Below, in pieces: positions 3,449 to 11,796 of a DNA stretch of 64,000 bases; positions within the stretch are counted from its first letter, which is position 1; every line of letters starts with the position of its first letter. Under the pieces are notes generated by a model. That model was not told where the DNA came from. It worked only from the letters and a program-made list of their open reading frames with translations, and searched no databases. The position numbers and the translations under genes are program-made. Source of the DNA: an uncultured SAR324 cluster bacterium (GTDB lineage Bacteria; SAR324; NAC60-12); contig CACIWU010000002.1 in assembly GCA_902590435.1 (NCBI GenBank), positions 631 through 64,630 of the forward strand, written 5' to 3'.

Positions 3449-4069
3449 TTATGAAAACACAACAAGTCTTACAGAGGTTATATACTCTATTGAATCGTTT
3501 GTCTTTGCGGGTAGGAGTTCCATAGAATTGATATTTTGCTCAGCTAGGGTCATCCGTTTGAAAAGAAAGTCTTCTTTATTCATGGAGTGACCCTGTATGT
3601 ATAATTGTGTCGTTAAAACATTTTCCCTTTCATTCCAAAGCTTCAGGTGGATGTGTGGGGTTCTTCCAGGATATTCTACTGGAATGATAGTTCGGAAGTA
3701 AAAATGACCATTCCGATCTGTGATGGACCTGCCAAATCCCTGAAATTGAACATCCCTCATTTTGCTTCCGAATGAGCCAGTATGTAGATATACACCATTC
3801 ATGTCTGTCTGCCATATCTCAGCGGTCATTCCTTTAATAGGTTTAGAATCACGATTTACAAGACTACCCATTATGTTTAAAATCTTTCCGCCTGCCTCGA
3901 TTGTAGATTGTCCATTTTTTACAAGATCGTTGTCAGTGTCTTCTGGAATTCTATCGGGATAAAATGGTCCTTCTCCTTGCCAAGGTGTTCTGATGAGTTC
4001 CCCTAAGGAAACACCAGGTAAAACAATTGCTCCACATATAGCAAAAAAAGATCTTCTTGAGGTCAACAT
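3449..4069 (-). CDS. intradiol ring-cleavage dioxygenase-like protein with twin-arginine (Tat) signal
   Basis: N-terminus MLTSRRSFFAICGAIVLPG is a Tat motif (SRRxFF). Also GEGPFYP and GRTPHIHLKL (compare RPAHIH of intradiol dioxygenases). Confidence 0.75.
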   Translation of the reverse strand: MLTSRRSFFAICGAIVLPGVSLGELIRTPWQGEGPFYPDRIPEDTDNDLVKNGQSTIEAGGKILNIMGSLVNRDSKPIKGMTAEIWQTDMNGVYLHTGSFGSKMRDVQFQGFGRSITDRNGHFYFRTIIPVEYPGRTPHIHLKLWNERENVLTTQLYIQGHSMNKEDFLFKRMTLAEQNINSMELLPAKTNDSIEYITSVRLVVFS

Positions 4070-4084
4070 AGTTCTTGTATATAT

Positions 4085-4142
4085 AATGTGTTACTCCCCA
4101 AAAGAATAGGGATTGAGAGTAGGATAAGTAGGTGTTTCACTT
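4085..4142 (-). repeat. inverted partial copy of the island 5' module (upstream of the dioxygenase gene)
   Basis: Reverse complement AAGTGAAACACCTACTTATCCTACTCTCAATCCCTATTCTTTTGGGGAGTAACAC. Its first 16 nt are identical to 5470-5485, and the remainder resembles the CCCTCATTCTTGT / AGTAACAC pieces at 6972-6993. Confidence 0.7.
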
Positions 4143-4335
4143 GATTTCTTATTGTTGATTAGTAGAACCCAATATAATATGATTCCCGGGACAATTTCTC
4201 ACATTTCTACTTCAGTAGAAAATGTAATTTTGTTATGAAACATAGCATAATTTGTTTTTATATTAAATTTATTAAAATATTACAATAAATTTTTAAAATC
4301 TGAGAGCCTTTTATATATAGCGCTAACGGATTTTA

Positions 4336-4345
4336 CCCCCCCCCC
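4336..4345. repeat. homopolymeric C10 tract in the divergent dioxygenase/lectin intergenic region
   Basis: Sequence ttttaCCCCCCCCCCttcaa counted directly. It lies 131 nt upstream of the lectin ATG. Confidence 0.95.
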
Positions 4346-4475
4346 TTCAATTTTTTTATTCTACGTAAAGCTTAAATAAGCTACCAATGTGGTGGATATT
4401 TTTTTGCATGCACGGTTATTTTAATATTATTCACAAATCCAAAAAATTTTTGTAATTGAAGAATTATTTTTTTTA

Positions 4476-5321
4476 ATGAAAAACATTTTTTTTATATCTT
4501 TCATATCAACGTTTAGTCTCATAGCCTATTCCTGTAGTGAAAAAGATGACTACAAAAGTTTTGAAAAATATGGTGCCAGTAGTACTAGTAATCCATATAT
4601 TCCTGATAATTTTACTGTTAGCGGAGCAAACAATACTGTAACTATAACTTGGAATCATGTTGATGATGCTACAAGTTATACCATTTTCTGGAATACTGAA
4701 GGAGGAGTTGATACTAGCGACAATGCCATCACTTCAATCACGAATGACAATTACACACATAGTAATTTGGAAGATGGTTCAAGATACTATTACAAGGTAG
4801 CCGCGGTAAGTAAATTTTATGGAACAAGTACACTTTCTTCTGAAGCAAGTGCTATTATTTCTTCAAATATACAAGGTTCTCAAACTTATAACTCTCATAC
4901 ATACGCTATTACAAGCTCAGCTATGAACTTTGCCAATGCTAAAATTCAAGCCGCAGCATTAGGAGGATATCTCACAACAATAAACACTAAAGCTGAAAAT
5001 ACATTTCTGACTACAGAGTTTTACGGAACATATGGCGCTGCAATTTGGATTGGAGCTAATGATATCGAAACAGAAGGAACATGGATATGGGATAATGGTA
5101 CTACATCAGGGGACAATGGATTAACGGATACTATTTGTAATGCACCATCTGGTGATTGTCAACCTAGTAATGCAACATGGGCAGATGGTTCTAGAAAATG
5201 GAATAACGGTGAACCAAATAACGCAGGTAATGAAGACTGCGCTAATATTACCAGAAGTGATGGTACCTGGAATGATCTAAGGTGTTCAAGAACATTGTAC
5301 GGTATTATTGAATTTGATTAA
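4476..5321 (+). CDS. lipoprotein with fibronectin type III domain and C-type lectin domain (EPN/WND)
   Basis: Signal plus lipobox-like MKNIFFISFISTFSLIAYSC followed by acidic SEKDD. Fn3-like VTITWNHVDDATSYTIFWN...YYYKVAAV. CTLD: WIGANDIETEGTWIWDNG...WNNGEPNNAGNEDCANITRSDGTWNDLRCSRTLYGIIEF. Confidence 0.8.
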   Translation: MKNIFFISFISTFSLIAYSCSEKDDYKSFEKYGASSTSNPYIPDNFTVSGANNTVTITWNHVDDATSYTIFWNTEGGVDTSDNAITSITNDNYTHSNLEDGSRYYYKVAAVSKFYGTSTLSSEASAIISSNIQGSQTYNSHTYAITSSAMNFANAKIQAAALGGYLTTINTKAENTFLTTEFYGTYGAAIWIGANDIETEGTWIWDNGTTSGDNGLTDTICNAPSGDCQPSNATWADGSRKWNNGEPNNAGNEDCANITRSDGTWNDLRCSRTLYGIIEFD

Positions 5322-5400
5322 TGAGTTATGAAATACTATCCCCGCCACCTCCACTAAAAATAGTAAAATAACAGACACCAAAAATTTCTTCAAGTAAATT

Positions 5401-5520
5401 CCCTCAATTCTTTTAAAATCCCCCAAGTTTTGGTATATATTGGTTTAATTTAAACACTTATGGGAAACCAAGTGAAACACCTACTCATCATCCTCTCAAT
5501 ACTTCTTCTTTCTTCTCCTG
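5401..5520 (+). repeat. island 5' module copy 1 (promoter-like P box plus signal-peptide-like U box)
   Basis: P box 5401-5440 CCCTCAATTCTTTTAAAATCCCCCAAGTTTTGGTATATAT resembles 6981-7019. The U-box core 5474-5508 is 35/35 identical to 6882-6916. Confidence 0.85.
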
Positions 5521-5919
5521 TGATTGGTCAGTATGATGAAAAATCGAGTGCCACAAACTATTTTGTAACTTACTAAATAAAAAATATGAACTTTGAAGAT
5601 ACACTAACTGGAGGGCACCCAAACTCATTAGGAAAAACTATAATAAGTACGATTACGATGACTAGGATTTTTCCATTTGTGCCACTTTTTTGCCATTGAG
5701 TTTTAAAAAAGGCATAAAAATTAATTAATTCCCTTCCCCACATTAATGTAATTCAACCCCATTATATTTTAATTGACAAACCATTAATGCATTTGTAGGA
5801 TCATGGGGTTGTTAATGTGATAACAAATCTGGGGAGTTAATCAGTACTTATATCAAATAGGATTGAGAACTTCGAATTATTGAGTTTTAAACTATTTATT
5901 AAACCTATAAAGAAGGAAA

Positions 5920-6285
5920 ATGATGCCACTTATAAGAATTGATATACCTGAAGGAGTGTCGAATGAGGATAAAGCAAAGATACAAAAAAATGTCAGAGAG
6001 GTTGTATTAAAAACACTTGCTCCTAAACAAGTGAGATATGATTATGTTTCGATAAGAGAGGCATTTGGCATTATTGGTGATGGTTTGCCAGTAGTAGATG
6101 TTGATTTGAGACCAGGACGTGAACCTGAAAGAAAAAAAGGTTTGGTGGATGGTATTTCTTCTGTTCTTAAAGATATATTAAATGTTGATCCTGAAGACGT
6201 ATATTGTATTTTCAGAGAAACTCCTGCTCACAATCATTATACTGGCGGTGAACCTTTGCCAGATTGGGTTCCTGCAGACAAGTAG
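5920..6285 (+). CDS. tautomerase-superfamily protein (4-OT-like, long form)
   Basis: MMPLIRIDIPEG...: a start at the second Met (5923) would expose the catalytic Pro1. SD-like GAAGGA lies upstream. Size and pattern fit the roughly 120-aa tautomerase family. Confidence 0.7.
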   Translation: MMPLIRIDIPEGVSNEDKAKIQKNVREVVLKTLAPKQVRYDYVSIREAFGIIGDGLPVVDVDLRPGREPERKKGLVDGISSVLKDILNVDPEDVYCIFRETPAHNHYTGGEPLPDWVPADK

Positions 6286-6875
6286 ATTGTTCTCAAAAAC
6301 AATAATACCGGTCATTCCGTACTTCTTAGCAACCTCCACAAACTCTTTGGAAAGATAAACCTTGGAATGTAACAGGATACGACAAAGACGGAAACATCCT
6401 TGGAAAGTTTGTGAATGGGAACCCAACAAAACAATGACCAACCCTACAAATTCCTGAAACTTTTTCCCAAAAAATATTCACAGTCTAACATAATTTTTAA
6501 ACCTCCCTTATCCAGGTAAAACAAACAGATTTATGAGAAATTATTAATCCTCATAACCTCCCGAAATAACCTCCAAGAAAAACCCATTAATTAACTTCAT
6601 TTCCAATTCTTATAATATCTCTATTAATGACACTAAAAGGCTTTTGATAGCAATATTATTTTAGATATAATCCTAATCATATTTTACCTTAAATATAGCT
6701 TAAATAGCGATATATAGCTTTTTAAAGCTATTTTAAACAAGAGTTACCTCATTAATGACAATAATATCTAAAAAGAGATGAAAATAGACTAATCAATAGA
6801 CCAAAAATTAATGAGATATTGGTTAAGTATTTTTTTTAATTTAATTCCTATCTTTATCTATTTTTCAAACCAATA

Positions 6876-7053
6876 AACCATGAAACACCTACTCATCATC
6901 CTCTCAATACTTCTTCGTTTCTCCTGTAAGAAACCCCCACACTTAATTCTTCACAGAGTTAGACAGTCCCCAAGTAACACCCCTCATTCTTGTAAAATCC
7001 CCTATTTTTTGGTATATCTAAGGTTTTAGATTAAATAATCTACTAAAAAACCA
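6876..7053 (+). repeat. island 5' module copy 2 (U box then P box) directly upstream of the 7054 gene
   Basis: 6882-6916 is identical to 5474-5508. The P box 6981-7019 contains TTGTAA, 17 nt, then TATATC, about 35 nt before the ATG at 7054. Confidence 0.85.
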
Positions 7054-7698
7054 ATGAGACATATATTCAAAATCTTTTCTACAATTATTATACTAATTTC
7101 GTTTTCTTTTAACATATTTGCAAATGAAGATAATTCCGTTACTAGAAACAAAACTTTCCAAATACAAGCAATTGTCTATTCATCCTTAGGAACTGGTCTT
7201 AGTCTTAGTTACAGATTCAAGAAAAATATCTGGTTAAACTTTGATACACAATCATTATCTGGAACTATGTCAATAGACTCAAATGACGGATCAACAAGGG
7301 AAGATGCTGATTTTGAATTTCAAACCAAATATATAAATGTGCGAAATTATTTAACTAGTATATTTAGTGATTTATTTATTCAATATGGAATTGTATCAAC
7401 AAATTGGGATACAAAATCTATAGTAAAAAGTAATGAAAATAATCAAAAGAAAGCAGTTTATAAAACAAATTATCCAACCAAAGGAGTTAATTTTGGTGTA
7501 GGAATGAATTGGATTTTTTATAATGGTTTATCTTCAGGACTATATTTAGTTAGAATTATAAGTGAAGAACCATCATTTACCTATGAACTTGAAGAGGATT
7601 GGGAATGCTCTAGTTCTTGTCGATCAAATTATGAGAGTACTGTAAAAAAATATACTCCTAACAATTCATTTTATTTAACTTTTGGTTATAATTTTTAA
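7054..7698 (+). CDS. putative small outer-membrane beta-barrel protein
   Basis: Signal peptide MRHIFKIFSTIIILISFSFNIFA. Alternating aromatic/Gly-rich strands. C-terminal ...FYLTFGYNF ends in Phe, as in OMP sorting signals. Confidence 0.45.
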   Translation: MRHIFKIFSTIIILISFSFNIFANEDNSVTRNKTFQIQAIVYSSLGTGLSLSYRFKKNIWLNFDTQSLSGTMSIDSNDGSTREDADFEFQTKYINVRNYLTSIFSDLFIQYGIVSTNWDTKSIVKSNENNQKKAVYKTNYPTKGVNFGVGMNWIFYNGLSSGLYLVRIISEEPSFTYELEEDWECSSSCRSNYESTVKKYTPNNSFYLTFGYNF

Positions 7699-7891: not shown

Positions 7892-7934
7892 GAGTAGTGA
7901 TTGCAAGGGGATGGTGGAGACGAGGGGGATCGAA
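7892..7934. repeat. exact 23-nt copy of tRNA-Ala 3' end plus 20-nt shared flank (att-like direct repeat)
   Basis: 7912-7934 TGGTGGAGACGAGGGGGATCGAA is identical to 11721-11743. Similarity ends at the next base (T versus C). Confidence 0.85.
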
Positions 7935-11720: not shown

Positions 11721-11796
11721 TGGTGGAGACGAGGGGGATCGAACCCCTTACCTCAACGCTGCCAGCGTTGCGCTCTACCAGTTGAGCTACGCCCCC
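11721..11796 (-). tRNA. tRNA-Ala (anticodon GGC), CCA encoded
   Basis: Reverse complement GGGGGCGTAGCTCAACTGGTAGAGCGCAACGCTGGCAGCGTTGAGGTAAGGGGTTCGATCCCCCTCGTCTCCACCA folds as a cloverleaf. Anticodon loop CTGGCAG. G3:U70 Ala identity pair. Confidence 0.95.

Follow-up and report, generated by a model that had tools for sequence, protein, structure and literature searches.

The carbohydrate-recognition domains of the animal EPN-class C-type lectins, among them those of collectin-11 (CL-K1; 4YLI, 9SRK), DC-SIGN and DC-SIGNR (1K9I, 1K9J), Endo180 (its second C-type lectin-like domain, CTLD2; 9QY1), mincle, langerin, SP-D and mannose-binding protein (MBP), are the closest described counterparts of a bacterial protein that we analyse here. 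Its gene lies on the forward strand at positions 4476..5321 (stop codon included) of a 64,000-nucleotide stretch of contig CACIWU010000002.1 (assembly GCA_902590435.1), from an uncultured bacterium of the SAR324 cluster, which ranks among the most abundant uncultured lineages of the dark ocean; the whole stretch is referred to below as the window. The open reading frame (ORF) list, Pfam matches, homologues and the ratio of non-synonymous to synonymous substitution (dN/dS) describe a complete gene for 281 residues with a lipoprotein-type signal, an fn3 module and a Lectin_C domain. The identity of the last as a C-type lectin domain is close to certain. We consider it reasonably probable that the protein is a SAR324 envelope lipoprotein in which an fn3 stalk carries a Ca2+-type lectin head, serving in attachment to, or capture of, external glycans.

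The SAR324 domain has in common with the animal domains the Pfam family and the fold (root-mean-square deviation (rmsd) about 2-3 Å), the WIGx motif, the long loop region, both Ca2+ sites with their EPN...E...WND arrangement and the C3-C4 disulfide. Overall identity is only 23-28%, while the GEPNNA..EDC..WND..C stretch is about 50% identical to that of collectin-11. In the SAR324 protein, however, the C1-C2 and C0-C0' disulfides are replaced (A159/I278 and T142, respectively), and a 29-residue insert with its own Cys pair stands between the WxWxNG strand and the EPN loop. Instead of a coiled-coil neck or a transmembrane stalk it has a bacterial lipoprotein anchor and an fn3 stalk.

Bacteria and phages possess other binding proteins with a C-type lectin-like superfold, namely the intimin/invasin domains and the proteins of diversity-generating retroelements (Mtd, TvpA), but these compact domains have neither the long loop region nor the Ca2+/EPN/WND site, and they belong to other sequence families. 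We rejected a compact fold of the intimin/invasin or retroelement type for the SAR324 domain, because it matches the Lectin_C family and has the loop region and both Ca2+ sites; no retroelement was seen near the gene, though no search for one was made. MpPA14, the PA14 domain of a Marinomonas ice-binding adhesin, mediates the association of the bacterium with diatoms (PMC8092209). It and LecB of Pseudomonas aeruginosa resemble the predicted SAR324 site in that Ca2+ directly coordinates vicinal sugar hydroxyls, but their folds and families are unrelated, and they are RTX adhesin modules or soluble tetramers rather than lipoproteins. The one literature match for a 'bacterial C-type lectin' concerns LecB, whose fold is different. 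The same domain is annotated in databases for further bacterial and phage proteins, in secreted or surface architectures; WND and EDC are often found there together with EPN or QPD, and a GH(T/x)Y N-terminal strand is common. The family with the insert and the lipoprotein-(fn3)n layout of the SAR324 protein was, among 88 genomes of the phylum, seen only in the genus of the window.

An earlier note, made from the letters of the window, had proposed a Lectin_C domain with intact EPN and WND motifs at the C-terminus, preceded by an fn3 module and a lipoprotein signal, and profile searches bear this out. Pfam matches Lectin_C (PF00059) at residues 149-275 (E 9.3e-13, 49.3 bits, profile positions 2-102 of 107; 50.7 bits in the whole-genome scan) and fn3 (PF00041) at residues 43-117 (E 1.2e-6, 29.1 bits). 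Both scores exceed the curated gathering thresholds, which are 22.6 bits for Lectin_C and 25 bits for fn3. The motifs quoted in that note were located at residues 191-208 (WIGANDIETEGTWIWDNG) and 242-280 (WNNGEPNN...GIIEF) of the translation, and the residues of Ca2+ site 1 are present as well. No NCBIfam model matches the 281-residue protein. The fn3 module (4602..4826) is probably a stalk and is all-beta in the AlphaFold2 (AF2) model, with seven strands at a predicted local distance difference test (pLDDT) score of 88-95. The complete C-type lectin-like domain, supported by Pfam, phmmer, AF2 and Foldseek, spans residues 130-281 (4863..5318).

The N-terminus looks like that of a bacterial lipoprotein, and the predicted product fits a substrate of signal peptidase II. 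The signal peptide (4476..4535) was read directly from the sequence: K2 is followed by NIFFISFISTFSLIAY and then by A-Y-S-C20, providing the basic region, the hydrophobic core and the lipobox (I-A-Y-S-C, closing at Cys20) of the PROSITE-type rule, with which the signal MKNIFFISFISTFSLIAYSC|SEKDD agrees. Of the 120 best homologues, 105 have a comparable [LIVM]-x-S-C box, and in most of these acidic residues come next. In the SAR324 protein, residues +2 to +6 of the mature chain read S-E-K-D-D (4536..4550), and this acidic stretch recurs across the family as GESDD, AEKDE, SADDT, SSEES, GEKEE and similar variants. The stretch might act as a sorting signal. It is reminiscent of the acidic signal that directs lipoproteins of the Bacteroidota to the surface; SAR324, however, is not a member of that phylum. 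A crude genome-wide lipoprotein scan gave 26 candidates, too few to judge an acidic stretch at +3 to +6 as a general signal.

The protein was compared with solved structures by sequence and by fold. A phmmer search of all Protein Data Bank (PDB) chains matched 108 sequences, the best being collectin-11, MRC2/Endo180, the mannose receptor and DC-SIGN/DC-SIGNR; among the matches listed, all are animal C-type lectin domains except the bacterial fn3-like 3mpc, which matches the stalk. The AF2 model of the complete protein has a mean pLDDT of 80.7; a separate model of the lectin domain, built from a 98-sequence alignment, has a pLDDT of 86.8 and a predicted template-modelling score (pTM) of 0.84. 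The predicted structure has the canonical C-type lectin fold, with two helices, two sheets and a long loop region. Foldseek returned 519 PDB matches at E<=1e-3, of which the best 50 are all animal lectin domains, with 23-28% identity. First among them is Endo180 CTLD2 with bound methyl fucoside (template-modelling (TM) score 0.89 normalised to the target and 0.72 to the query, rmsd 1.9 Å), and further matches include DC-SIGN, CL-K1, DC-SIGNR, langerin, mincle, SP-D and MBP. Over the animal lectin domains the TM score ranges from 0.73 to 0.89 when normalised to the target and from 0.65 to 0.72 when normalised to the query. The structure prediction called for in the note thus superposes the domain on sugar-bound animal lectin domains, at a target-normalised TM of up to 0.89.

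In order to assign the residues of the Ca2+/sugar site, we relied on HMMER alignments. The segment RKWNNGEPNNAGN-EDCANITRSDGTWNDLRCSRTLYGIIEFD aligned to a 42-residue stretch of collectin-11 with no internal shifts in EPNN..EDC..WND..C, while IWIGANDIETEGTW aligned to VFIGINDLEKEGAF and IGxNDxExEG matched the loop of site 1. All five ligands of Ca2+ site 2 occupy the EPN..E..WND positions aligned with collectin-11 and MRC2. Read with the established residue roles of mannose-binding protein A, the alignments assign E246, N248, E253, N266 and D267 to site 2 and D196, E200, N249 and D254 to site 1. In the DNA, the WIGA motif (equivalent to WIGL) with the site-1 residues D196 and E200, placed by the alignments to collectin-11 and MRC2, lies at 5046..5075. 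The first half of the Ca2+/sugar site, E246-P247-N248-N249 ... E253-D254-C255, which aligns without gaps to GEPNNA..EEDC of collectin-11, occupies 5211..5240, and W265-N266-D267 with C270, the disulfide partner of C255, occupies 5268..5285, as indicated by alignment and family conservation.

This set of residues is strongly conserved. Among 121 family sequences aligned to the family hidden Markov model (HMM), the nine Ca2+/sugar-site residues are kept in 119-121 (at least 98%), position 249 being N, D or Q. W191, G193, D196, E200, P247, N248, D254, C255 and C270 are invariant, and E246 (119/121), E253 (119/121), W265 (120/121), N266 (119/121) and D267 (120/121) are nearly so. The flanking positions 244-245, 250, 252, 260-264, 269 and 271-274 vary freely within the family. 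Compared with its three closest copies the gene has a dN/dS of 0.18-0.36, and it is under purifying selection. Judged from these residues, the protein is likely to bind glycans of the mannose, N-acetylglucosamine (GlcNAc), glucose or fucose type in a Ca2+-dependent manner.

A C-type lectin-like domain may also recognise something that is not a sugar, for instance ice, a mineral or a protein. Sugar binding is absent from the majority of animal C-type lectin-like domains and from the type II antifreeze proteins, a Ca2+-independent member of which (2zib) appears among the fold matches; moreover, the large insert alters the loop region of the SAR324 domain. We nevertheless regard a non-sugar ligand as unlikely, since the full set of residues that predicts sugar binding in animal domains is present and almost invariant, and every one of the best matches, by sequence as by fold, binds sugar in a Ca2+-dependent manner, with the sugar visible in several of the solved structures.

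The earlier note also spoke of conserved Cys pairs, a statement that is correct for one pair and not for the others. The C3-C4 pair (C255-C270) is kept, but the C1 and C2 positions are taken by A159 (in 121/121 family members) and I278 (in 119/121), and there is no C0-C0' pair. The N-terminal hairpin of the long form is present (strands 132-138 and 141-146), with T142 at the position of the C0' cysteine. Other bacterial Lectin_C domains likewise lack C1-C2, so this disulfide is not universal in the Pfam family.

Family-HMM alignments delimit the insert, which is specific to the family, as residues 211-239 (SGDNGLTDTICNAPSGDCQPSNATWADGS; 5106..5192), with C221 and C228 as a Cys pair of its own. 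All bacterial lectin domains extracted from outside the family align to the family HMM in two pieces, skipping positions 82-110, which correspond to the insert. The motif GTTSGDxGxTD at its start is nearly invariant, and a paralogue in the same genome has a 20-residue form without cysteines. HMMER places TWIWDNGT and NATWADGS both on one segment of MRC2, and this double alignment hints that the insert arose by local duplication.

Taken together, the Lectin_C match, the site residues, the superposition of the fold and the stalk with its lipoprotein signal make a glycan-binding adhesin, as the note had suggested, the most reasonable reading. Such an adhesin would run from a lipid-anchored Cys20 through a short acidic linker and a single fn3 stalk module to the lectin domain at the C-terminus. 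In seawater (about 10 mM Ca2+) site 2 would hold Ca2+, and the EPN/WND arrangement would ligate sugars of the mannose, GlcNAc, glucose or fucose type through their equatorial hydroxyls at positions 3 and 4. Lying beside the sugar site, the 29-residue insert probably forms part of an extended or a secondary surface for binding. The affinity of a monomer is expected to be weak, and the protein would then function through many copies per cell, with one to three fn3 modules spacing them from the membrane. Its most likely role would be the attachment to, or capture of, glycans on particles, on algal or protist surfaces or in polysaccharide gels; we infer both the surface exposure and this ecological role.

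Several observations weigh against this interpretation. Of the three disulfides found in long-form animal domains, two are absent, and the insert has a pLDDT of 66-74 and no regular secondary structure in the AF2 domain model; for both reasons the binding loop could behave differently from that of animal domains. The geometry of the Ca2+ sites is itself predicted, from alignments and from the superposition of the fold, AF2 models containing no ions. None of the lectin loci compared has a conserved neighbour gene pointing to a glycan pathway, our literature search found no study of a bacterial PF00059 protein, and the assembly is 54% complete. Furthermore, lipoproteins of Gram-negative bacteria face the periplasm by default.

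It follows from this default that the protein might sit in the outer membrane facing inwards, where the same lectin chemistry would bind the glycans of the cell's own envelope (peptidoglycan ends, intermediates of lipopolysaccharide or capsule, periplasmic glucans) and contribute nothing to adhesion outside. EPN-type sites accept GlcNAc and glucose too, and the SAR324 lineage is not known to have surface-export machinery or a surface-export signal. A housekeeping envelope protein, however, would hardly be so patchily distributed: full copies are present in 4/17 congeners, paralogues are several and pseudogenes frequent, the number of stalk modules varies and the gene shows cassette-like mobility. 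In addition, longer family members contain poly-Thr/Ser linkers, which are typical of extracellular stalks. We therefore judge a periplasmic role to be improbable, and favour external glycan binding.

In a large protein collection we found 627 homologue clusters at E<=1e-3, all with the layout signal-(fn3)n-Lectin_C and almost always from marine metagenomes and single-cell genomes. Among the best 120, the fn3 module is single in 15, double in 97 and triple in eight. Clustered at 50% identity, the family amounts to about a dozen clusters among 8,696 Lectin_C-like matches at E<=1e-3 (1.84 billion representatives searched). Alignment of the family against a named genome collection gave no relative. 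In a scan of 88 genomes of the phylum, the insert family with the lipoprotein-(fn3)n architecture is confined to the genus of the window, where the 4/17 congeners mentioned above have full copies bearing the insert, while the Lectin_C domains of other genera in the phylum lack it.

The lectin family is flexible, multi-copy and often decaying. A second full copy in the genome encodes 284 residues and is 56% identical. At a third locus (L003, G000:C12, 1008-1092 and 1393-1755) there is a 120-codon remnant with an internal stop and with QPD, the galactose-type motif, in place of EPN; it lies about 300 nt downstream of tRNA-Leu(TAG) and represents the second tRNA-linked site of the family in this genome. 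One close metagenomic copy has TGA at the codon of Cys228, and one congener has two frameshifted lectin copies. The same congener also encodes a lectin domain of the family type with a degenerate site (NPN...WDD, no EDC; L135, G005:C4:675000-689000, about 5880-7337), within a long run of repeat-rich ORFs that looks like a giant, possibly fragmented surface protein.

The stalk is not restricted to lectins. Congeners encode lipoproteins with NHL-propeller heads on a matching signal and fn3 stalk, 44% identical over residues 1-135, and because NHL heads occur on the same stalk, the latter would seem to be a common scaffold on which heads can be exchanged. The proteins at L009 (G001:C89, 3-1427) and L010 (G003:C52, 214-2265) are examples, combining the same signal and fn3 stalk with a linker that is acidic or poly-Thr. 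A transposase-like ORF adjoins the NHL-head gene in L009.

The note had called true Lectin_C domains with EPN and WND uncommon in bacteria, which is overstated. Scores above the Pfam cut-off were obtained in 12/88 SAR324 species genomes and, among the species genomes sampled from other phyla, in 9/201 Pseudomonadota and 25/151 Planctomycetota (26 at E<=0.001), so that about 4-17% of species genomes in these three phyla carry the domain. A control scan of 14 well-known model bacterial genomes found none. About half of 27 inspected bacterial loci retain EPN or QPD plus WND, and a search of representatives showed bacterial Lectin_C domains joined to bacterial partner modules (PEP-CTERM, RTX, PPC, TIG, PD40). 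A Lectin_C protein is also annotated in Flavobacterium phage vB_FspM_immuto from the Baltic Sea (L142, NC_055915.1, 2809-3807) and is 35.6% identical to the SAR324 domain. This phage gene adjoins nuclease and ribonucleotide-reductase genes and lies near a cohesin-domain protein.

We also asked what the term 'animal-type' implies for the origin of the domain, which we judged by phmmer bit scores for one query. With the 152-residue domain, the nearest domains outside the family come from another SAR324 genus (73 bits) and from the Planctomycetota (62 bits); no single animal domain exceeds 55 bits, and the remaining bacterial domains reach 30-50 bits. A search with the lectin domain only against a set of 5.8 billion proteins recovered same-family fragments and no named animal proteins. 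The gene has a G+C content of 0.355 and a third-position G+C content (GC3) of 0.221, the core genes in the window having a GC3 of 0.21-0.24; the assembly is 1.51 Mb long with 32.6% G+C. Its GcvP is 76-78% identical to metagenome-assembled genomes labelled 'Candidatus Lambdaproteobacteria' or 'Deltaproteobacteria', labels that we take to be equivalent to SAR324, and less than 62% identical to all else.

If the gene had recently been acquired by horizontal transfer from an animal or some other eukaryote, this would account for the finding that all lectin-domain matches of solved structure are animal, and for the absence of Lectin_C from the 14 model genomes; the gene also lies in a variable region near tRNA-associated repeats. 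We nevertheless consider such an origin highly improbable, and recent transfer from animals was rejected on bit scores and base composition. Identity to animal domains is only 23-28%, the best animal score (55 bits) lies below those of the other SAR324 genus and the Planctomycetota, and the base composition (G+C and GC3) matches the core genes of the host. Lectin_C is moreover widespread in bacteria, in bacterial architectures, and the lipoprotein signal and fn3 stalk are common to other proteins of the genus. Since the bacterial domains score higher and the GC3 is host-like, there is no sign of a recent import from animals, and 'animal-type' does not hold as a statement of origin.

The context of the gene points to a mobile unit. 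Three metagenomic copies (L138, L139 and L140), whose proteins are 88-94% identical, align at the DNA level only within about 4385-5360; beyond this span their flanks resemble neither the window nor each other. The conserved cassette (approximately 4385..5360, forward strand) thus comprises about 90 nt of upstream DNA, the ORF and a tail of about 40 nt. In the nearest congener, which has 83% nucleotide identity in shared genes, the genes at 2.9-7 kb of the window are dispersed over separate contigs, and the lectin homologue adjoins a sugar ABC-transporter locus and adenylate cyclase. The sharp edges of homology, the unrelated flanks and the displaced copy of the congener indicate that the gene is a self-contained unit, about 1 kb long, which is found at different sites. 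Of the acquired islet described in the note, a cassette-like gene of variable context therefore remains; its source appears to be the flexible gene pool of the lineage itself.

The conserved upstream block contains a candidate promoter, TTTGCA-16-TATTAT (4403..4430, forward strand), identified by a consensus scan, which is weak evidence; promoter-like sites in the region (14 found, 10.5 +/- 3.3 expected) are not above chance. Elements TTTGCAT and TTTTAAT are conserved in the three closest copies. Further upstream, outside the cassette, is a C10 homopolymer (4336..4345), which stands 131 nt from the start codon and about 58 nt from the candidate -35 element. It is the only C/G run of at least 9 in the window (chance expectation 0.02), and the whole 1.5-Mb assembly contains only two C/G runs of 10. 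The run is part of a repeated element at 4284-4393 (…TCTGAGAGCCTTTTATATATAGCGCTAACGGATTTTA-Cn-TT…), and the same element has C6 in three congeners. A terminator-like hairpin (4381-4395) lies between the run and the candidate promoter.

The note had linked the gene to a possible phase switch, in which slippage of the C10 run would toggle expression of the lectin. The singularity of the run in the window and its position 5' of the start codon are in favour of such a switch, as is the difference between C10 here and C6 in the congeners, which indicates that the length of the run changes over evolutionary time. However, the run lies outside the cassette and is missing upstream of all three closest copies, and for these reasons the link is unsupported. 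The hairpin and the conserved candidate promoter also stand between run and gene, and the repeated element containing the run occurs separately, beside other genes. An effect on the divergent dioxygenase-like gene, or an artefact of assembly, would explain the run equally well. Phase variation of the lectin is accordingly very unlikely.

What emerges is a solid but ordinary adhesin candidate, of a kind that is fairly common in uncultured bacteria, its unusual traits being limited to the lineage-specific insert and the cassette-like behaviour in populations. The corrective value of the analysis is that the feature is real but common, while its supposed rarity, animal origin and phase switch fail. 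The detectable PDB relatives of the domain are all animal, yet it occurs in a sizeable minority of environmental bacteria. Does a bacterial EPN/WND site bind sugar as the animal domains do, and which glycans would a deep-ocean bacterium hold? With one stalk module and one lectin domain, the 281-residue protein is among the smallest complete examples and hence a convenient construct.

A more far-reaching idea, to which we give little credence, is that the insert-bearing lectins form a lineage-specific recognition repertoire of this SAR324 genus, with exchangeable heads (lectin or NHL) on promoter-equipped cassettes and a second ligand site. If so, the cassettes would shuffle between tRNA-linked flexible islands and be gained, duplicated and inactivated quickly. 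The GTTSGDxGxTD insert would form the second ligand site, with a specificity unseen in animal lectin domains, and the proteins would serve specific recognition of a partner, host or prey rather than generic stickiness.

A 369-residue family member with a short insert is encoded on a 4.4-kb IMG/VR contig (L141, IMGVR_UViG_3300031811_000423, 1447-2556), between ORFs without a Pfam match and one that resembles aldo/keto-reductases and has a much higher G+C content. Carriage of the family by phages was not accepted from this contig, given the other ORFs without a Pfam match and the differing composition of the flanks; the contig may be misclassified or chimeric.

Beside the lectin gene in the window are genes for a 206-residue Dioxygenase_C protein with a twin-arginine-like leader (3449-4069, reverse strand) and a 121-residue tautomerase (5920-6285, forward strand). 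As these two genes are on different contigs in the nearest congener, they do not form an operon with the lectin gene. A module of about 140 nt, consisting of a promoter-like stretch and the start of a signal peptide (MKHLLIILSILLL), recurs at 5388-5532, 4101-4176 (inverted), 6881-6919 and 6986-7017. Two of its copies (4101-4176 and 5436-5511) bracket the lectin gene as a 76-nt inverted repeat with 76% complementarity. The module has many copies in every congener and forms clusters at, for example, G005:C3:133-152 kb and G005:C4:616-626 kb.

Finally, the 23-nt 3' end of tRNA-Ala(GGC) (11721-11743) is repeated exactly at 7912-7934, and the two copies bracket znuA/znuC/znuB/zur. The exact duplicate supports an integration-type origin of this zinc-uptake block, outside which the lectin gene lies. 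A weaker copy of the tRNA-Ala 3' end (15 of 17) is found near 2936-2952.

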